A stretch of DNA of 44,241 bases from the sequence record MK373773.1; one strand, 5' to 3'. This document shows positions 2,663 through 24,806 of the stretch, piece after piece. The DNA is from Escherichia phage vB_EcoP_KAW1A4500. Made by a program: the position numbers and the translations under genes. The notes under the pieces were generated by a model. That model had not been told where the DNA came from. It saw only the letters and a program-made list of their open reading frames with translations, and did no database searches. How positions within the stretch are numbered: the first letter of the stretch is position 1; each line of letters begins with the position of its first letter.

Positions 2663-2890
2663 ATGGATTTAGATAGCATCATTATGGCATTTGCTCTTAT
2701 TGGCTTAAGCTGGTGCTCCTATCACCTTTACCGTGAGCTCTTATTTGATAAAGCTAAACGCAAACTAAGAAAGGAAGGCGGTAATTACCTTTGTATAAGA
2801 GGTGGCTTAGTCGAATACATTGCACCTAACGGCATGGAGTGCGCCATTAACAAAGATGCATTTATAGAGACGTGGCATTACATCAAGTAG
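2663..2890 (+). CDS. Small early membrane protein, hypothetical (75 aa)
   Basis: ORF track; N-terminal hydrophobic segment AFALIGLSWCSY; AGGAG RBS. Confidence 0.55.
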   Translation: MDLDSIIMAFALIGLSWCSYHLYRELLFDKAKRKLRKEGGNYLCIRGGLVEYIAPNGMECAINKDAFIETWHYIK

Positions 2891-2954
2891 CTAGCCTATA
2901 GCCTACCTGTGTGGGCTATGTGATATTTACTTACCACTATATAAGGTGACTATT

Positions 2955-3839
2955 ATGACTACTGAAAACACCCTCCTGTCTGTCCGCGAAGCTGCAACCG
3001 CTGAGATTAAGCAGCATTTGGATAATATCGGCACTTCTTACATCAAAGTAGGTGCTTGTCTGAATGAGTTACGCGGAGACTTCGAAGGTCAAAAAGAGTT
3101 CTTAGCCTATGTTGAAGCAGAGTTCGGCATCAAGAAAGCACAATGCTACAAGCTGATGAGTGTAGCCCGTGTCTTTGAAGGTGACGAACGATTCAAAGGC
3201 GTGGCTATGCGTGTAATGCTGGCGCTTGTTCCTTTCGCTGATGAGAGTATCATCATGGAGAAGGCCGCAGAACTTGCCGCAGAGGGCAAGCTGGACACTA
3301 ACGCCGTAAACGCCCTAATTGAGTCTAAGAAAGAGCCAAAGGCCGAGACGGTACAATCTAAGGCTGAGCCAGTAAAACCGCAGGAGAACGCGGCTGAGGC
3401 CGCAGAATCACAGGAAACGCAAGCGCCGCAGGTAGTGCCGCCAATGAGTGAGCCGGACACCGACGAATCCGCACAGTGGGAGGGCGAAAGCAAGCCGGAA
3501 GCACCTAAGGCTGCGCCTCTGGACAACACTGCTAACACAGAGAACGCCGCCATGGCTGGCCTGTTGGCACAAATTAAGGCACTGACTGAGCAATTACAGG
3601 CGGCTAACGACCGCATCGCAGCTCTAACCAGTGCACGTGAAAGCAAGAAGGCAGCCGCGCCTATGCTCCCACAATTCAAATCCAAATGTTTCTATGCTCG
3701 CTTGGGTTTGAGTGCTGAGGAGGCAGAGAAGAAAACAGCAGTGAACAAGGCACGCCGCGAACTGGTTAAACTGGGATACGGTGAAGGCCATGAGGCATGG
3801 CCCTTAATCTCTGAGGCAGTAGAAGAATTAACTAAGTAA
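2955..3839 (+). CDS. Early protein of unknown function (294 aa): HTH-like N-domain, Pro/Glu/Ala-rich linker, coiled-coil C-domain
   Basis: ORF track 2946..3839 with ATG at 2955; sits where T7 has gene 0.7 but shows no kinase-like sequence. Confidence 0.65.
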   Translation: MTTENTLLSVREAATAEIKQHLDNIGTSYIKVGACLNELRGDFEGQKEFLAYVEAEFGIKKAQCYKLMSVARVFEGDERFKGVAMRVMLALVPFADESIIMEKAAELAAEGKLDTNAVNALIESKKEPKAETVQSKAEPVKPQENAAEAAESQETQAPQVVPPMSEPDTDESAQWEGESKPEAPKAAPLDNTANTENAAMAGLLAQIKALTEQLQAANDRIAALTSARESKKAAAPMLPQFKSKCFYARLGLSAEEAEKKTAVNKARRELVKLGYGEGHEAWPLISEAVEELTK

Positions 3840-3902: not shown

Positions 3903-6528
3903 ATGCAAGACCTACACGCTATTCAACTTCAACTTGAAGAAGAAATGTTTAACGGCGGTATCCGTCGCTTTGAAGCGGACCAACAACGCCAGATTGCATC
4001 CGGTAATGAATCAGACACGGCATGGAATCGCCGTTTATTGTCCGAGTTAATCGCGCCAATGGCTGAAGGTATTCAGGCATACAAGGAAGAGTATGAAGGT
4101 AAAAGAGGCCGTGCACCGCGTGCATTAGCTTTCATTAACTGCGTAGAAAACGAAGTGGCAGCATATATCACGATGAAAATCGTTATGGATATGCTGAATA
4201 CAGACGTTACCTTACAAGCAATCGCTATGAATGTAGCGGACCGCATCGAAGACCAAGTACGTTTTAGCAAGCTGGAAGGTCACGCAGCTAAGTACTTTGA
4301 GAAAGTGAAGAAGTCGCTTAAGGCTAGCAAGACTAAATCTTATCGTCATGCGCACAACGTAGCGGTAGTAGCTGAGAAATCTGTTGCTGACCGTGACGCG
4401 GATTTCTCCCGTTGGGAGGCATGGCCTAAAGATACCTTGCTACAAATCGGTATGACCTTGCTAGAAATACTGGAAAATAGTGTATTCTTCAATGGTCAGC
4501 CTGTCTTTCTTCGCACCTTGCGCACTAATGGTGGCAAGCATGGCGTTTACTACTTACAGACCAGTGAACACGTAGGGGAATGGATTACAGCATTTAAAGA
4601 ACATGTAGCGCAACTTAGCCCGGCTTATGCACCTTGCGTTATACCTCCGCGTCCGTGGGTTTCTCCTTTTAATGGCGGTTTTCACACTGAGAAGGTAGCA
4701 AGTCGTGTGCGTCTTGTTAAAGGCAGCCGTGAACGTCCGCAAGCTGACCAAAAAGCAAATGCCAGCGGTTTACAAGGCTGTTAACGCTTTGCAGGCGACT
4801 AAATGGCAGGTTAACAAGGAAGTTTTACAGGTTGTTGAGGACGTAATACGGCTTGATTTAGGCTATGGCGTACCTTCCTTCAAACCACTCATCGACCGCG
4901 AGAACAAGCCAGCTAATCCGGTGCCGTTAGAGTTCCAGCACCTGCGAGGCCGTGAACTGAAAGAAATGTTAACACCGGAACAATGGCAAGCCTTCATCAA
5001 CTGGAAAGGTGAATGCACCAAGCTGTATACCGCTGAGACTAAGCGCGGCAGCAAATCGGCGGCGACCGTCCGCATGGTAGGGCAGGCCCGTAAATACAGC
5101 CAATTTGACGCAATATACTTCGTGTATGCTCTGGACAGCCGCAGCCGCGTCTACGCGCAATCTAGCACGCTCTCTCCGCAATCAAACGACTTAGGCAAGG
5201 CATTGCTCCGTTTTACCGAAGGGCAGCGTCTTGATAGCGCTGAGGCGCTTAAGTGGTTTTTGGTGAACGGGGCTAATAACTGGGGTTGGGATAAGAAAAC
5301 TTTTGACGTGCGCACCGCTAACGTGCTGGATAGTGAATTTCAAGACATGTGCCGCGACATTGCAGCGGATCCGCTGACCTTCACTCAATGGGTAAATGCC
5401 GACTCCCCTTACGGCTTCCTTGCATGGTGCTTTGAATATGCGCGTTATCTGGATGCACTGGATGAAGGCACGCAAGACCAATTCATGACGCACCTCCCAG
5501 TCCATCAAGATGGTAGTTGTTCTGGTATCCAGCACTACAGTGCTATGCTACGCGATGCAGTAGGTGCGAAAGCGGTAAACCTTAAGCCCTCTGACTCACC
5601 TCAAGATATTTATGGTGCCGTTGCGCAGGTAGTAATTCAGAAGAATTATGCATACATGAATGCAGAGGATGCGGAAACCTTCACTTCTGGCAGCGTGACT
5701 TTAACAGGTGCAGAACTTCGTAGCATGGCTAGTGCGTGGGATATGATAGGAATCACTCGCGGCCTGACCAAAAAGCCTGTAATGACACTACCTTATGGCA
5801 GCACACGTCTAACCTGCCGTGAATCAGTGATTGATTATATCGTTGATTTGGAAGAAAAAGAGGCCCAACGGGCTATTGCGGAAGGGCGTACCGCCAATCC
5901 TGTACATCCTTTTGATAATGACCGCAAAGACAGCCTGACACCTAGCGCAGCTTATAACTATATGACAGCTTTAATCTGGCCTTCTATTTCGGAAGTGGTT
6001 AAAGCTCCTATAGTGGCAATGAAAATGATTCGTCAGCTTGCACGTTTCGCAGCTAAAAGAAACGAAGGCTTAGAATATCCCTTACCAACTGGCTTCATCT
6101 TGCAACAAAAGATAATGGCTACCGATATGCTCCGCGTATCCACTTGCTTGATGGGTGAAATCAAGATGAGTCTCCAGATTGAAACAGATGTAGTTGATGA
6201 AACGGCAATGATGGGTGCGGCTGCTCCTAACTTCGTCCATGGTCACGATGCTAGCCACCTGATTCTGACTGTATGTGACCTAGTGGATAAAGGTATTACA
6301 TCCATTGCAGTCATCCATGATTCTTTCGGTACTCATGCAGGACGTACCGCAGACCTGCGGGATAGCTTAAGGGAAGAAATGGTTAAGATGTATCAAAACC
6401 ATAATGCCCTGCAAAATCTGCTAGATGTGCACGAAGAGCGTTGGTTAGTAGACACCGGAATCCAAGTACCAGAGCAAGGAGAGTTTGACCTTAACGAAAT
6501 CTTAGTTTCAGACTATTGTTTCGCATAA
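3903..6528 (+). CDS. Phage single-subunit DNA-directed RNA polymerase (SP6-type), interrupted by an apparent frameshift near 4734
   Basis: Two overlapping ORFs (3903..4784 and 4705..6528) together give an RNAP of about 874 aa; N-terminus [19 protein letters not shown] and palm motifs ([21 protein letters not shown]) match SP6-type RNAP as recalled. Confidence 0.9.
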
Positions 6529-17404: not shown

Positions 17405-18404
17405 ACTTCGTAGCCTTTATAAAGACTCCGAGGTGCTTGATGCAATCGAGCAAGCTACCGACGAGAAAGGTAATGTTAACTATAATGAGATGGCGAAGAT
17501 TCTATCTAGCCACCCTGTGGGTAAGAAGATCACCCGTCAACTTGCTCGCTATTGGCATGGTCAATTCAAGAAGACCAAGAAGAATGGTGATTACTACCAG
17601 ACTCTTCTGCAAGAGGATAAGCGTATCAAAGAAGAGCGTAAGCTCAGGACTCCTGACCGCTACGAGGATTTGGCTATTGTACCATTGCCTGACTCGCCTC
17701 ATCGAAGTGTACTGGTAATCCCTGATACCCATGCACCGTATGAGCACCCAGATACCTTAGAGTTCCTTGCAGCAGTGGCAGCACGTTACCGTCCTGATAC
17801 GGTGGTTCATCTTGGAGATGAGGCAGACAAACATGCCTTATCGTTCCACGATTCGGACCCAAATCTGGACAGTGCTGGCATGGAATTAGAGAAGGCTCGT
17901 GTCTTCATGCACAAGTTGCACAAGATGTTTCCTGTGATGCGCCTGTGTCATTCTAATCACGGCTCTATGCACTTCCGTAAGGCAAGCGCCAAGGGTATTC
18001 CAGTGCAATATCTTCGTACATACCGTGAAGTCTTCTTCCCAAATGGAGGTGGCGACCAGTGGGATTGGCAACATACACACGTACTTGAGTTGCCGAATGG
18101 TGAACAGGTAGCATTCAAGCATCAACCTGCTGGCTCTGTCTTAGCAGATGCAGCGCATGAGCGTATGAACCTTGTGTGTGGTCACTTGCATGGTAAGATG
18201 TCTGTGGAGTACGCACGTAATACACATGAACAGTATTGGGCTGTGCAGGGCGGCTGTTTGATTGATGAGTCATCTCGTGCATTTGCCTATGGTCGTGAGT
18301 CCAAATACAAGCCAGCATTAGGTTGTGTGGTTATTCTGGAGGGTGTGCCGCACATTGTCCCGATGCAGACCAATAGTGACAATCGCTGGATTGGTAAGAT
18401 TTAG
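17397..18404 (+). CDS. Calcineurin-like metallophosphoesterase with N-terminal extension (335 aa from GTG)
   Basis: ORF track 17367..18404; GTG at 17397 follows AAGGAGG; metallophosphatase motifs DTHAPY, GDEAD, GHLHG. Confidence 0.72.
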   Translation: MAKLRSLYKDSEVLDAIEQATDEKGNVNYNEMAKILSSHPVGKKITRQLARYWHGQFKKTKKNGDYYQTLLQEDKRIKEERKLRTPDRYEDLAIVPLPDSPHRSVLVIPDTHAPYEHPDTLEFLAAVAARYRPDTVVHLGDEADKHALSFHDSDPNLDSAGMELEKARVFMHKLHKMFPVMRLCHSNHGSMHFRKASAKGIPVQYLRTYREVFFPNGGGDQWDWQHTHVLELPNGEQVAFKHQPAGSVLADAAHERMNLVCGHLHGKMSVEYARNTHEQYWAVQGGCLIDESSRAFAYGRESKYKPALGCVVILEGVPHIVPMQTNSDNRWIGKI

Positions 18405-18421
18405 TTGACACTATAGAACAA
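18399..18421 (+). promoter_or_regulatory. Phage RNAP promoter P7 (ATTTAGTTGACACTATAGAACAA)
   Basis: Consensus core with 2 upstream substitutions; overlaps the phosphoesterase stop. Confidence 0.65.
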
Positions 18422-18946: not shown

Positions 18947-19063
18947 ATGACTTGTCCTAATTGTGGAAGTGAAGAAACAGAACATGTAGTTATGTCAGAT
19001 ACTTATCATTTCTATTTCTGTCATAACTGCGACACTACCATTGAAGAGGAAGAAGCTGTATGA
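18947..19063 (+). CDS. Small zinc-ribbon protein (38 aa)
   Basis: MTCPNCG...FCHNCDT gives a CxxC...CxxC pair; start and stop overlap neighbours (TGATATG, ATGA). Confidence 0.45.
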   Translation: MTCPNCGSEETEHVVMSDTYHFYFCHNCDTTIEEEEAV

Positions 19064-20007
19064 ATATCTTTGAGTTCCTAGGTCTTCCAGAAGATCACCG
19101 CAATCACCCATTCATGCTAGTGAAACATCGCGGTGAAGTCCCTGAGAAGAAACTTACTTTTCCATGTTATGCACAGGTGAAACGAGATGGTATCTTTTCT
19201 GCTGTTGCTGTTCGCACTGATGGTGTCGTTGGCATTTTTGGTCGCACTGGTAAGAAACTGGCAAACACTGAAGTCCTCGAACAAACATTTGCTACCTTTC
19301 CGGTTGGCATTTATCTTGGTGAGCTTCAGTCTATGGCCGTTGATATCTACCTTGAAGCTCTATCAGGGGTGGTAAATCCTAATCGTACAGAGCCGCTTGA
19401 CTTTATAGGCCAGCAGATTAAAGACAACCTGTATATCGACTTCTTCGATATGTTAACCATTAAGGCATTCCATGATGGATTCACTGATGTTTCTTATCTC
19501 AAACGTTACGATGCTTTACATCGTCGCATCGGCACTCATCTTAGCGGGTACAACGCTATCCTTCCTATTACTCCTTGCCATAATGAGCGAGAAGTTGAAG
19601 CGTTTGCGCAAGAGCAAATAGACGCAGGCCGAGAGGGTGCTGTGTTTAAGCTGGACTGTGATTATGAAGCAGGCCACAAAGGTTATCGTCAGACTAAAGA
19701 AGTCCGTAAGGTAACTTATGACCTTACTTGTATTGGCTTTGAAGAAGGCAAAGGTAAGTACAAAGGTAAGGTAGCTAACCTCATTTTCAAATGGAAAGGA
19801 GGCAAGACAATCAAAGCTATGTTAGGTAAAGGGTGGACTCATGCAGATGCAGAACAGATGTTCCACGACATTAAACATGGTGGACGATTGAATGTCATTG
19901 GTAAAATCTTTGAAGTAAAAGGTCTTCAGGATTCAAGCAAGGGCAACATTCGTCTGCCCAAAGCGGGAGAATTAAGACATGACAAAGATGAACCAGATTT
20001 CTTTTGA
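19060..20007 (+). CDS. ATP-dependent DNA ligase (315 aa)
   Basis: ORF track; adenylation motif I KxDG (AQVKRDGIFS) and ligase-like downstream regions. Confidence 0.78.
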   Translation: MNIFEFLGLPEDHRNHPFMLVKHRGEVPEKKLTFPCYAQVKRDGIFSAVAVRTDGVVGIFGRTGKKLANTEVLEQTFATFPVGIYLGELQSMAVDIYLEALSGVVNPNRTEPLDFIGQQIKDNLYIDFFDMLTIKAFHDGFTDVSYLKRYDALHRRIGTHLSGYNAILPITPCHNEREVEAFAQEQIDAGREGAVFKLDCDYEAGHKGYRQTKEVRKVTYDLTCIGFEEGKGKYKGKVANLIFKWKGGKTIKAMLGKGWTHADAEQMFHDIKHGGRLNVIGKIFEVKGLQDSSKGNIRLPKAGELRHDKDEPDFF

Positions 20008-20194
20008 TAGCATGAAGGCAACTCGTGCAGTTGAGGTAGCAGAAGCTATCTTTGAAACTTTATCCTGTGGCATGGAAGTGCCATATAACTTACTGGCGGA
20101 TGCAGAAGCGCTTGGTCTTTCTGTAGAAGCTATCCAAGAGAAGGTTGAGGAACTCTATGGTACAGACGAAGAAGAAACCGACGATTTCATTTGA
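19979..20194 (+). CDS. Acidic protein, hypothetical (71 aa)
   Basis: ORF track; GGGAG RBS. Confidence 0.45.
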   Translation: MTKMNQISFDSMKATRAVEVAEAIFETLSCGMEVPYNLLADAEALGLSVEAIQEKVEELYGTDEEETDDFI

Positions 20195-20327
20195 AGGAAT
20201 GGAGATGCTTGAGATGATTCTCAAGCCTTCATCTCCGAAGGTGACTAAGACTCATGAAGAGCTAATTGTTGATGAAGTGAAGCGTTACATAATGGATTGT
20301 GTCAGAGCACAACTGGTGGTCCAATGA
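20157..20327 (+). CDS. Hypothetical protein (56 aa)
   Basis: ORF track 20145..20327 with ATG at 20157; overlaps neighbours. Confidence 0.35.
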   Translation: MVQTKKKPTISFEGMEMLEMILKPSSPKVTKTHEELIVDEVKRYIMDCVRAQLVVQ

Positions 20328-20785
20328 TACGTCCAGCTTCATTCCTAGATATTCCTGAGATTATAAACCTTGGGAATAAATATGTGGAAGAGGAAGTCAA
20401 GGTAGTGGCCCATCACTCAGCCTCATGGAATGCAGAACAAAGCGCACATAACCTTTGCGCATCTCTTAGTAGAGAGGATTTATTCCTGTGGGTAGCTGTG
20501 GATGAAGGGCAGATTGTAGGATTCCTGTGGGCTGGTTATCACGAGTTGGCCCCTTGGACACCTGTAAGAGTTGCCTCTGATATTCTCTTTTACATTATAC
20601 CAGAGAAGCGAGGGACACTGCTTGGTATGCGTCTCATCAAAGCGCTTAAGCAATGGGCTAGTGATAATGAATGCTCTGAGGTTCGCCTGTCTATCGCCTC
20701 TGGTATTAATGAAGAACGTGTCGGACGTATGTATAAGCGACTTGGCTTTGAACCGTTTGGCACTGTGTACAACCTGAAGTTCTAA
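20324..20785 (+). CDS. GNAT-family N-acetyltransferase (153 aa)
   Basis: ORF track 20297..20785 with ATG at 20324; ...IVGFLWAGY...IIPEKRGTLLGMRLIKALKQWA...RMYKRLGFEPFG matches the GNAT acetyl-CoA binding pattern. Confidence 0.72.
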   Translation: MIRPASFLDIPEIINLGNKYVEEEVKVVAHHSASWNAEQSAHNLCASLSREDLFLWVAVDEGQIVGFLWAGYHELAPWTPVRVASDILFYIIPEKRGTLLGMRLIKALKQWASDNECSEVRLSIASGINEERVGRMYKRLGFEPFGTVYNLKF

Positions 20786-20794
20786 GGAGATAAC

Positions 20795-21004
20795 ATGGGT
20801 GTTGTAAAGAAAGCATTTAAGGCTATCGGTCTTGCTCAAGATGCACCACGTATTGAAGCCAAAGTCCCAGCACAGCAGCTTGAGCGTAAGCCTGAGACTG
20901 AAGCTGAAGATATTCAAATTGGTGCAGGTGGTGATGATGCGACTGCATCTGCAAAAGGTAAGCGCGGCCTTGTCCGTCCGGTAGCTTCTAGCTTGAAGGT
21001 GTAA
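20795..21004 (+). CDS. Small virion-associated protein, gp6.7-like (69 aa)
   Basis: ORF track; AAGGAG RBS; immediately upstream of portal; composition resembles T7 gp6.7 (weak). Confidence 0.5.
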   Translation: MGVVKKAFKAIGLAQDAPRIEAKVPAQQLERKPETEAEDIQIGAGGDDATASAKGKRGLVRPVASSLKV

Positions 21005-21005
21005 T

Positions 21006-22556
21006 ATGAAACAGAGCACAGATTTGGAGTATGGAGGTAAGCGGTCTAAGATACCTAAGCTATGGGAGAAGTTCTCCACTAAACGTAGCTCTTTCCTTGA
21101 TAGGGCGAAGCATTACTCCAAATTAACCTTGCCCTATCTGATGAATGACAAAGGTGATAACGAGACTTCGCAGAATGGATGGCAAGGTGTAGGTGCTCAG
21201 GCAACTAATCATCTAGCCAACAAGCTAGCGCAAGTACTATTCCCTGCACAGCGTTCCTTCTTCCGTGTAGACTTAACTGCACAAGGTGAGAAGGTTCTTA
21301 ATCAGCGTGGCCTGAAGAAGACAGAGCTAGCTACCATCTTCGCTCAAGTTGAAACACGGGCAATGAAAGAGTTAGAGCAACGTCAATTCCGGCCTGCTGT
21401 AGTGGAAGCATTCAAGCATCTTATTGTTGCTGGTAGCTGTATGCTATACAAGCCGAGCAAAGGTGCAATCAGTGCTATCCCAATGCATCACTATGTAGTT
21501 AACCGTGATACCAATGGCGACCTGTTAGACATTATCTTACTGCAAGAGAAAGCCTTACGCACCTTTGACCCAGCTACACGTGCTGTAGTAGAGGTTGGCC
21601 TGAAAGGTAAGAAGTGCAAGGAGGATGACAGCGTTAAGCTGTACACACATGCTAAGTATCTTGGTGATGGATTTTGGGAACTCAAGCAATCTGCTGATGA
21701 TATCCCTGTGGGTAAGGTGAGTAAAATCAAATCAGAAAAGCTACCTTTCATCCCATTAACTTGGAAGCGAAGCTATGGTGAGGATTGGGGTCGCCCTCTT
21801 GCAGAGGATTACTCCGGTGATTTATTCGTTATCCAATTCTTATCTGAAGCGGTTGCCCGTGGTGCTGCGCTGATGGCAGATATCAAGTACCTGATTCGTC
21901 CGGGTGCTCAAACTGATGTTGACCACTTTGTTAACTCTGGCACTGGTGAGGTTGTCACTGGTGTAGAAGAAGACATCCATATTGTACAGTTAGGTAAGTA
22001 CGCAGACCTCACACCTATTAGCGCGGTTCTAGAGGTATACACTCGCCGTATCGGTGTTGTCTTCATGATGGAGACAATGACACGCCGTGACGCCGAACGT
22101 GTTACTGCTGTAGAAATCCAGCGAGATGCGTTAGAGATTGAGCAGAACATGGGTGGTGTATACTCCCTCTTTGCTACTACTATGCAATCGCCAGTAGCGA
22201 TGTGGGGTCTGCTGGAGGCAGGGGAGTCCTTCACTAGTGACTTAGTGGACCCTGTGATTATCACAGGTATTGAAGCTTTAGGACGCATGGCTGAGTTGGA
22301 TAAACTGGCTAACTTTGCTCAGTATATGTCACTGCCATTACAATGGCCTGAGCCTGTCCTAGCTGCTGTGAAATGGCCTGACTATATGGATTGGGTGCGT
22401 GGTCAAATCTCTGCTGAACTGCCGTTCCTTAAATCGGCTGAAGAGATGGCACAAGAACAGGAAGCACAGATGCAAGCGCAGCAAGCACAGATGCTTGAAG
22501 AGGGTGTGGCTAAGGCCGTGCCTGGTGTAATTCAACAAGAACTTAAGGAGGCGTAA
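21006..22556 (+). CDS. Portal (head-to-tail connector) protein
   Basis: 516 aa; first gene of the late module directly before scaffold and capsid, as in the T7 group; overlapping start/stop. Confidence 0.82.
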   Translation: MKQSTDLEYGGKRSKIPKLWEKFSTKRSSFLDRAKHYSKLTLPYLMNDKGDNETSQNGWQGVGAQATNHLANKLAQVLFPAQRSFFRVDLTAQGEKVLNQRGLKKTELATIFAQVETRAMKELEQRQFRPAVVEAFKHLIVAGSCMLYKPSKGAISAIPMHHYVVNRDTNGDLLDIILLQEKALRTFDPATRAVVEVGLKGKKCKEDDSVKLYTHAKYLGDGFWELKQSADDIPVGKVSKIKSEKLPFIPLTWKRSYGEDWGRPLAEDYSGDLFVIQFLSEAVARGAALMADIKYLIRPGAQTDVDHFVNSGTGEVVTGVEEDIHIVQLGKYADLTPISAVLEVYTRRIGVVFMMETMTRRDAERVTAVEIQRDALEIEQNMGGVYSLFATTMQSPVAMWGLLEAGESFTSDLVDPVIITGIEALGRMAELDKLANFAQYMSLPLQWPEPVLAAVKWPDYMDWVRGQISAELPFLKSAEEMAQEQEAQMQAQQAQMLEEGVAKAVPGVIQQELKEA

Positions 22557-23476
22557 TGTCTTTCTCATTTACTGAACCGTCAACCACTCACCCTACTGCT
22601 GAAGAGGGTACGGTAGAAACCAAGGAGGTAACAACTGATGCTGCTATTACTGATGCTCCTGCTGACGCTGGCACTGCTGTACAAGATGACAATGCTGGTG
22701 CACAACCTACTGAAGACACCGGAGGAGAAGCTTCTGGACAGCCTTCAGAAAAAGGAGACAATGGCGGAGAGAATGGTGAACCTAAGCCAGATGATACCGC
22801 GACCGACACTGAGGAAGTGCAATACTTCTTCGGAGAACATGAAGTAACAGTAGACATCCCACAGGATGTAACTGACAGCCTTAAAGAGAAAGGCATTGAT
22901 GCCAAGCAGGTTGCCAAGGAACTCTATTCCAAAGGTGGCAAGTTTGAACTGTCAGATGCAACCAAGCAGAAATTGTATGATGCTTTTGGCAAGTTTGCGG
23001 TAGATGCTTACCTGTCAGGTCTTAAGGCTCAAAATGAAGCCTTCTTCCTGAAAGAAGCCAACGCAGCTAAAGAGTTGGAAGCAGCTAACACCCAACGATT
23101 CTCTGATGTTTCTAAGGAAATTGGTGGCGAAGAAGGTTGGTCCCGTCTTGAGGAGTGGGCGCTTGAAACTCTATCCGATGACGAACTCACGGCATTCAAT
23201 GCGGTGATGGAGTCTGGCAACCAGTACCTCCAGCAGTACGCTGTGCGTGAACTGGAGAGCCGCCGTAAGCAGGCACAGGGGGATGATAAGCCATCCCTGA
23301 TTGAGCCATCAGCACCTGCTAAGGCTAATGAAGAGAATGGCCCACTGACGCGAGATCAGTACGTTCAAGCAATCGCAACTCTTAGCCAGAAGTACGGCAA
23401 TGACCGTAAAGCTATGGCAGAAGCTCAGGCTAAACTGGACGCCCGTCGCCGTGCTGGCATGGCTCGCGGTATCTAA
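22556..23476 (+). CDS. Capsid assembly scaffolding protein
   Basis: 306 aa, acidic low-complexity N-terminus and helical C-terminus; between portal and capsid. Confidence 0.78.
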   Translation: MSFSFTEPSTTHPTAEEGTVETKEVTTDAAITDAPADAGTAVQDDNAGAQPTEDTGGEASGQPSEKGDNGGENGEPKPDDTATDTEEVQYFFGEHEVTVDIPQDVTDSLKEKGIDAKQVAKELYSKGGKFELSDATKQKLYDAFGKFAVDAYLSGLKAQNEAFFLKEANAAKELEAANTQRFSDVSKEIGGEEGWSRLEEWALETLSDDELTAFNAVMESGNQYLQQYAVRELESRRKQAQGDDKPSLIEPSAPAKANEENGPLTRDQYVQAIATLSQKYGNDRKAMAEAQAKLDARRRAGMARGI

Positions 23477-23482
23477 TTCAGT

Positions 23483-23505
23483 ATTTACTGGACACTATAG
23501 AAGGG
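23483..23505 (+). promoter_or_regulatory. Phage RNAP promoter P8 for capsid gene (ATTTACTGGACACTATAGAAGGG)
   Basis: Consensus 23-mer; transcript would begin with a GGGAGA/TCTCCC hairpin (23503..23519). Confidence 0.82.
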
Positions 23506-24771: not shown

Positions 24772-24806
24772 GCCCTATCTACCTTGCGTAGGTAGGGTTA
24801 TTTTTG
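24772..24806 (+). terminator. Strong hairpin plus T-tract terminator after capsid gene
   Basis: GCCCTATCTACCTTGCGTAGGTAGGGTTATTTTTG; stem about 10 bp followed by TTATTTTT. Confidence 0.6.

Follow-up and report, generated by a model that had tools for sequence, protein, structure and literature searches.

Why does a phage carry a gene for a small acetyltransferase directly ahead of the genes that build its portal, and what might such an enzyme acetylate? The locus that raises this question is an open reading frame (ORF) at positions 20324-20785 of the 44,241-nucleotide sequence of Escherichia phage vB_EcoP_KAW1A4500 (MK373773.1), a stretch referred to here as the window. The window represents a K1E/K1-5-type coliphage of the genus Vectrevirus (Autographiviridae, subfamily Molineuxvirinae), and the 3.6-kb stretch surrounding the ORF is 96-98.5% identical to Vectrevirus genomes (K1E, K1-5, T145P2 and others). 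A preliminary description, made from the sequence, had seen in this ORF a 153-amino-acid GNAT-family acetyltransferase of the DNA-metabolism module and had offered it as a candidate enzyme of host manipulation or counter-defence. We find that the gene stands in a fixed slot at the head of the virion-assembly block and is not an accessory of DNA metabolism; what the slot may tell about the target of the enzyme is weighed below.

The coding sequence and the elements on which its identification is based are located as follows.

20324..20785, plus strand: coding sequence of a GNAT acetyltransferase, very probably the orthologue of K1-5 gene 27 (153 amino acids plus stop; Pfam, phrog_1249, AlphaFold2 fold)
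20315..20319, plus strand: Shine-Dalgarno-like GGTGG, 4 nt 5' of the ATG, read from the sequence
20600..20626, plus strand: beta4-alpha3 loop P93-E-K-R96-G97-T-L-L-G101 (motif A), predicted to bind the CoA pyrophosphate; aligns with the RGxGxG loops of 4j3g and SSAT2
20699..20749, plus strand: alpha4 motif B, S126-G-I-N129...Y137...G141-F142, from family conservation

The ORF is exactly where the preliminary description had placed it and has the length given there. It opens with an ATG at 20324, which overlaps the TGA of an upstream 60-amino-acid ORF as ATGA (20324-20327), and closes with a TAA at 20783-20785. Most clusters of homologues likewise contain proteins of 153 amino acids starting with MIRP, and the G+C content of the ORF (0.455) is that of its surroundings (0.452 for the window). 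The product passes the curated gathering thresholds of three Pfam GNAT models: Acetyltransf_1 (PF00583; 38.9 bits, cutoff 20.7), Acetyltransf_7 (PF13508; 37.1 bits, cutoff 27) and Acetyltransf_10 (PF13673; 26.0 bits, cutoff 23.6). It also matches phrog_1249, "acetyltransferase", over its full length (residues 1-151, E 6.6e-54). An AlphaFold2 model calculated from an alignment of 18 homologues (predicted local distance difference test, pLDDT, 89.9) has the canonical GNAT order b1-a1-a2-b2-b3-b4-a3-b5-a4-b6-b7, with a short b6-b7 hairpin and no extra domains. When the model was compared with the PDB by Foldseek, 701 chains were retrieved at E<=1e-3, and 50 of the 50 matches listed are GNAT-type acetyltransferases; the neighbours have TM-scores (template modelling scores) of 0.7-0.78 at 15-25% identity, and the top sequence-level PDB match is 4j3g (8.4e-6). 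The GNAT call is thus borne out far beyond chance, and we are highly confident that the product is a GNAT enzyme orthologous to the product of K1-5 gene 27. As modelled, it is a soluble single-domain GNAT-fold protein, and, from sequence and model together, probably an acetyl-CoA-dependent N-acetyltransferase. This identification was already known, and it adds nothing new, because the protein is described as an acetyltransferase in the public records for K1-5, for SP6 and for many relatives.

The residues expected to hold the cofactor are largely in place. Judged from the alignment, the protein keeps the predicted acetyl-CoA-binding elements, namely the R96-G97...G101 loop and, on alpha4, N129...Y137...G141-F142. 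The segment IIPEKRGTLLGMRLIKAL, in which the preliminary description had recognised the GNAT acetyl-CoA-binding pattern, is present at residues 91-108, but it does not fit Q/R-x-x-G-x-G/A strictly, since loop position 4 is Leu instead of Gly; positions 1 and 6 of R96-G97-T-L-L-G101 do fit. Conservation was assessed with the query and 136 full-length representatives (50%-identity clusters) drawn from 1.84 billion proteins (n=137). In the family, motif A takes the variant form P-[ED]-x-R-G-[GST]-x-x-[AG], with R96 conserved in 98.5% of members, G97 in 87%, and A or G at position 101 in 88%. Motif B of GNATs, located on alpha4, contacts pantetheine and supplies the general acid. Its superfamily pattern (N/S...Y...G-F) is represented in full by N129, Y137, G141 and F142; across the 137 sequences G127 is found in 82%, G141 in 96% and Y137 in 70% (F in 13%, L in 11%), and N129 is invariant in close relatives and variable in distant ones. 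Conserved residues peculiar to the family are R3, D9, E23, D86 (D or E in 89%) and W111. The acidic E23 lies on alpha1 and D86 on the b4 strand just ahead of the CoA loop; in the model they are presumed to occupy the site at which an amine acceptor is usually held and deprotonated in GNATs.

The gene is a constant companion of the genes around it. In K1-5 the product of gene 27 (YP_654128.1; RefSeq "acetyltransferase") is 99% identical to the window protein outside an insertion, and its neighbours are the same as in the window: ligase, two small ORFs, GNAT, a small ORF and portal. The insertion belongs to the K1-5 reference copy (NC_008152, 19630-20157) and not to the window; it is an in-frame 66-nt (22-amino-acid) imperfect tandem duplication, HHSASWNAEQSA ITFVHLLIET, in the alpha1-alpha2 region, and its presence suggests that a disrupted copy is tolerated by the laboratory strain, or else that there is an error in the reference sequence. 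The SP6 "acetyltransferase" is 76% identical to the window protein. A GNAT relative is encoded in 239 phage records (tblastn), and a portal search (tblastn, E<=1e-100) retrieved 214 records. With the genus taken as the first word of the organism name, the numbers of portal and GNAT records, which are aggregate counts per genus and not matched record by record, are as follows (portal/GNAT).

Escherichia 59/59; Klebsiella 36/36; Vectrevirus 18/18; Salmonella 15/15; Pseudomonas 15/15
Proteus 13/13; Erwinia 10/10; Pectobacterium 5/5; Marinomonas 5/5; Vibrio 22/23

Because the two counts are almost identical in each genus, the sequence data suggest that the GNAT gene belongs to the core set and accompanies the portal gene, instead of being an accessory. 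When 185,579 genomes of bacteria and archaea were scanned with sequence patterns, no close relative of the GNAT was retrieved; the patterns were derived from the alignment of close relatives and are specific to them, so that the scan excludes close (prophage) copies only. In the literature on the SP6/K1-5 GNAT family we found annotation-level mentions and no functional study. The label "acetyl-CoA acetyltransferase" in one paper belongs to a different protein of 95 amino acids.

The genes on either side of the GNAT gene in the window are these.

19060..20007, plus strand: ATP-dependent DNA ligase, the last recognisable DNA-metabolism gene upstream (ORF; annotation in related records)
19979-20194, plus strand: small ORF of 71 amino acids, one of two that correspond to K1-5 genes 25 and 26; matches a PHROG without function
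20145-20327, plus strand: small ORF of 60 amino acids, the other of the two that correspond to K1-5 genes 25 and 26; overlaps the 71-amino-acid ORF and the GNAT start
20795..21004, plus strand: gp7.3-like protein of 69 amino acids, of the tail-assembly or "host range and adsorption" type (phrog_9033, 1.1e-12; phrog_1320, 1.9e-11)
21006..22556, plus strand: portal (head-tail connector); annotated as head-tail adaptor in K1-5, 100% identical in other Vectrevirus records
22556..23476, plus strand: scaffolding protein (ORF; K1-5 annotation)

As can be seen, the assignment to a DNA-metabolism module is half right, in that the ligase gene lies ahead of the GNAT gene. The neighbours that are conserved, however, are those it directly precedes, the gp7.3-like and portal genes. 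The two small upstream ORFs (19979..20327) match phrog_5860 (1.2e-40) and phrog_6507 (2.7e-37), both PHROGs without an assigned function. The gp7.3-like ORF begins 9 nt past the GNAT ORF, and its ribosome-binding site, AAGGAG, overlaps and follows the GNAT stop codon. The 69-amino-acid protein has Lys/Arg-rich ends (12 K+R) and, should the GNAT target virion proteins, would count as a candidate for its substrate. All long ORFs of the window are on the plus strand. A minus-strand ORF of 199 amino acids (20480-21079) overlaps the GNAT gene, the 69-amino-acid gene and the start of the portal gene; it is most likely spurious, because all recognised genes are on the plus strand.

The block consisting of a GNAT, a gp7.3-like or other small protein, portal and scaffold recurs in Molineuxvirinae, Colwellvirinae, Gajwadongvirus, Ghunavirus and Phikmvvirus, and in these phages the GNAT gene frequently overlaps or abuts the gene that follows. 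The same order was found in the following genomes.

K1-5, Vectrevirus: phrog_1249 orthologue by 99% identity
Ulitu01, Colwellvirinae: phrog_1249
phi-A318, Colwellvirinae: phrog_1249
ECBP5, Gajwadongvirus: phrog_1249
Aeromonas phage Tola, Autographiviridae: phrog_1249
metagenomic contig encoding a 53% identical protein, unclassified: Pfam Acetyltransf_1, weak
17A, Ghunavirus: phrog_3986
LUZ19, Phikmvvirus: phrog_3986

Members of phrog_1249 outside Autographiviridae, in Celeribacter phage P12053L (Zobellviridae) and Roseobacter phage CRP-810, also belong to a structural module: both stand directly after a tail appendage or fibre gene and ahead of uncharacterised ORFs. Within the examined stretches the GNAT genes of CRP-810 and P12053L are at 2857-3315 and 2896-3354, respectively. 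The cobavirus GNAT has been placed between internal virion protein genes and tail tubular genes, and a correspondence to T7 gp13 has been speculated upon (PMC6775973).

When would the gene be expressed? An element resembling a promoter of the phage RNA polymerase (RNAP), (..GACACTATAG), is matched 13 times in the window, where chance would give 1.3. The majority of the sites read TACTGGACACTATAG or TACCGGACACTATAG; one of the 13 matches is on the minus strand, at 2075.

2580, 6624, 8913, 9707, 13235, 14004, 15237, 18402, 23486, 36245, 38350, 40692, plus strand: phage-RNAP promoter-like sites sharing GACACTATAG
18402..18416, plus strand: phage-RNAP promoter-like site TAGTTGACACTATAG, start of a unit comprising ligase, GNAT, portal and scaffold
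23486..23500, plus strand: following promoter-like site, just 5' of the major capsid gene

The sites at 18402 and 23486 bracket the ligase, GNAT, gp7.3-like, portal and scaffold genes together. Counts of sigma-70 promoters and terminators near the GNAT gene are at or close to chance level. Directly 3' of the major capsid gene there is a strong terminator-like hairpin (24772-24798; 11-bp stem followed by a T-run), which probably corresponds to T-phi, the terminator of T7. The phage RNAP gene itself is split into overlapping ORFs at 3903-4784 and 4705-6528 (region 3903-6528, indel near 4733) owing to a 2-nt deletion (GTGAACACGTCC -> GTGA--ACGTCC) relative to the intact gene of K1E (KY435490); the deletion is probably a sequencing or assembly error or marks a defective clone.

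We reasoned that the slot may point to the target, and the reading that we tentatively favour, at clearly less than even odds, is protein acetylation tied to virion assembly or infectivity. The enzyme would act at the middle-to-late transition and would transfer the acetyl group of acetyl-CoA to a primary amine of a protein, either a Lys side chain or the N-terminus. The acceptor would be a component of the virion assembly or infection apparatus, such as the Lys-rich gp7.3-like protein, a tail protein or an internal protein, and the outcome would be a tuning of particle infectivity or host range by an enzyme that is itself no virion component. In this scheme T7 gene 7 ("host range"), in the same slot, would have the GNAT as its catalytic counterpart. 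The reading is based on the constant company that the gene keeps, in two phage families, with genes for tail, gp7.3, portal and internal proteins, on the "host range" annotation of the same-slot T7 protein, and on the absence of the slot protein from virions of phage phiPsa17 (PMC4517105). In that study the name "gp7" was given by the authors to a Rac-type protein, which was not among the detected virion proteins, while gp6.7 and gp7.3 were detected (PMC4517105); this fits an enzyme or assembly factor better than a structural protein. T7 gp7.3 has been described as a Lys-rich scaffold at the adaptor-nozzle junction that touches the DNA end (PMC11784390).

Several points weigh against this reading. 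Gene order is circumstantial evidence, and the loop of motif A is not canonical. We know of no report of acetylation of virion proteins in the T7 group, and the word "acetyl" does not occur in one structural paper searched for it. The structural neighbours of the GNAT model comprise Naa60, PAT/BAR, polyamine and aminoglycoside acetyltransferases alike, none of them specific. T7 gp7 has no significant sequence relationship to the window protein and lacks both alpha4 and the R-G loop, so that the "host range" phenotype may not carry over. Finally, Rac of phage LUZ19, the sole characterised GNAT in the slot before the portal and the only slot occupant studied experimentally, acts on the host (PMC7552054).

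Rac accordingly supplies the close rival: the window protein may instead serve host takeover, acetylating host proteins in mid-infection and thereby shutting down or redirecting host functions such as transcription. We regard this as possible though doubtful; the host-manipulation idea of the preliminary description is, by analogy with Rac, a plausible one. LUZ19 gp28 (Rac) triggers cleavage of the alpha subunit in its host's RNAP, cellular Lys acetylation rises generally, and mutation of the predicted acetyl-CoA pocket abolishes the cleavage (PMC7552054). Rac is a small GNAT of similar length (157 amino acids against 153 here) encoded in the same slot, directly upstream of a small virion protein gene and then portal, and besides its own phrog_3986 the single PHROG that it matches is phrog_1249 (4.9e-4). 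Comparison of the two families by hhalign is weakly positive (57-64% probability, E 6e-5 to 1e-4, over 56-76 columns of the GNAT core). The timing fits as well, because the GNAT gene is co-transcribed at the boundary of classes II and III.

The two proteins nevertheless belong to separate families. The window protein has no phrog_3986 match in the PHROG search and nothing is found by BLASTP against Rac; a profile compared with the single Rac sequence gives a probability of 0.6%. With these results, and with the family comparison reaching only 57-64%, direct homology to Rac was rejected. Rac-family proteins carry the motif DDDDxHVGP, and SxASGI.E/N is missing from them. Alpha cleavage is called specific to the genus Phikmvvirus, since the LKA1 homologue, encoded at the same place, leaves alpha intact (PMC7552054). 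Members of phrog_1249 in Zobellviridae, moreover, are found inside tail and internal-protein modules. On sequence comparison Rac is the closest functional precedent, a positional and fold analogue and not a family member. Rac-type proteins of phrog_3986 are also encoded in T7-like Pseudomonas phages (Ghunavirus), exactly at the position of T7 gene 7; the 17A gene is at 2438-2881 of the examined stretch. The motif conserved in the Rac family reads in full DDDDxHVGPxLGVQW, and many members have PEAPxG instead of PExRG, so that their CoA loop may be degenerate.

Would a small molecule serve better as acceptor? Polyamines, amino-acid analogues, aminoglycosides or other metabolites could be acetylated during infection, and we consider this unlikely. 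The best neighbours in sequence and structure include phosphinothricin/MSX-type enzymes (4j3g, 5dwn, PA4866, BAR), DpA, SSAT and AAC(6'), the short b6-b7 hairpin and the lack of extra domains agree with such a role, the conserved acidic E23 and D86 would suit a cationic amine, and one related record labels its copy "aminoglycoside acetyltransferase". The acceptor is nevertheless not readable from the structure, because the neighbours mix N-terminal, amino-acid-analogue, polyamine and aminoglycoside acetyltransferases; assignment of a substrate class from them was abandoned as non-discriminating. What the cellular GNATs (PAT, PA4866, BAR and ArsN1; SSAT and DpA; Naa60, Ard1 and RimI) share with the window protein is the fold and the acetyl-CoA-binding architecture, with no one of these groups standing out, whereas R3, D9, E23 and W111 of its family are not generic GNAT residues. 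None of the NCBIfam equivalog models (ArsN1, AAC(6'), RimI, MshD) scored above its curated cutoff, the best reaching 27.9 bits against cutoffs of 124-170 (ArsN1a 27.9 against 170, AAC(6') 25.5 against 140; RimI 23.5 against 86.4). The neighbourhood contains no pointer to a metabolite pathway, and strict linkage to virion genes in two phage families would be unexpected for a metabolic or resistance gene.

Slightly less probable again is a protein in which the chemistry is vestigial and the GNAT fold serves binding or assembly, for example as a chaperone for the gp7.3-like protein or in tail assembly. The Leu at loop position 4 departs from Q/R-x-x-G-x-G/A, roughly one family member in four has Phe or Leu instead of the usual general-acid residue, Tyr137, PEAPxG replaces PExRG in many Rac-family members, and T7 gp7, in the same slot, has the fold without alpha4 and the loop motif. 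Against this, three Pfam GNAT models are passed, and the strong conservation of R96, G97, A/G101, G127 and G141 among the 137 diverse sequences is hard to explain without cofactor binding.

T7 gp7 deserves attention in its own right. The statement in the preliminary description that T7 has no such gene holds for sequence signatures; at the level of fold it does not, since a homologue of the same-slot T7 gene 7 product is predicted to be GNAT-like. Gene 7 ("host range", 133 amino acids, NP_041992.1; NC_001604, 19130-19531) is directly upstream of 7.3 and near gene 8. Its product has no Pfam match and belongs to a separate PHROG, phrog_2746; hhalign revealed no significant profile similarity to either GNAT family (probability 1.1-1.5% against the phrog_1249-type family). 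A BLASTP alignment of T7 gp7 with the Rac-type protein of 17A has E 0.001 over 69 amino acids in the correct register. With the family-level hhalign probability at about 1% despite this match, sequence homology was discarded and the fold-level result alone stands. AlphaFold2 applied to a 98%-identical homologue of T7 gp7 (P0061, 11-sequence alignment) gave a model with pLDDT 90.6 and the topology b1-a1-a2-b2-b3-b4-a3-b5-b6. This model matched 248 PDB chains at E<=1e-3 (best E 8e-6, TM-score up to 0.70), and each of the best 50 of the 248 has the GNAT fold: two are entries for GNAT toxins and the others acetyltransferases. T7 gp7 is shorter than the window protein and lacks alpha4, and with it motif B, as well as the R-G loop, so that it is probably a protein of GNAT fold without catalysis and not an acetyltransferase. 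We found no paper that states a GNAT fold for T7 gp7.

Counter-defence by acetylation of a host defence effector, a signalling molecule or aminoacyl-tRNA is very improbable: although GNATs are generally known to be versatile, with GNAT toxins that acetylate aminoacyl-tRNA, and although phages are reported to use the GNAT-fold enzyme Mom with charged tRNA (PMC13219725), the lone PADLOC match (PDC-M11A, E 0.015 over 53 residues) is not significant, the NCBIfam matches are far below cutoffs and include no toxin-antitoxin toxin model, the sequence-level PDB matches contain no AtaT-type toxins, and the gene looks like a core gene, kept throughout the related genomes at a fixed position in the structural module, whereas typical anti-defence accessory genes vary between close relatives. 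The counter-defence and tRNA-linked roles suggested in the preliminary description thus receive no support. Mom-like DNA modification, considered on account of the nearby ligase, was rejected for lack of similarity to Mom. To our knowledge, DNA hypermodification has not been reported in the SP6/K1-5 phage group.

Beyond the single phage, one can ask whether all occupants of the slot have something in common. It is conceivable, though improbable as matters stand, that a "slot GNAT" upstream of the gp7.3-like and portal genes extends across the T7 supergroup, and that its ancestral job was acetylating or, in degenerate members, binding a virion or ejection protein, thereby setting infectivity and host range. 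It would take the form of phrog_1249 here, of the Rac family in Phikmvvirus and Ghunavirus, and of a stripped-down gp7 in T7; Zobellviridae would have kept it among tail and internal-virion genes, and the effect of Rac on the RNAP alpha subunit would be a lineage-specific side branch. If true, the T7 gene 7 "host range" phenotype would be tied to a post-translational modification of the virion. What is worth keeping at present is an apparent core gene at the head of the virion-assembly block, in a slot common to Rac and T7 gene 7. The recurrence of the slot and the predicted GNAT fold of T7 gp7 are modest by-products of the analysis, but they make the function experimentally approachable, and a widely conserved, unstudied podovirus gene, possibly together with the gene 7 "host range" phenotype, could thereby be explained.

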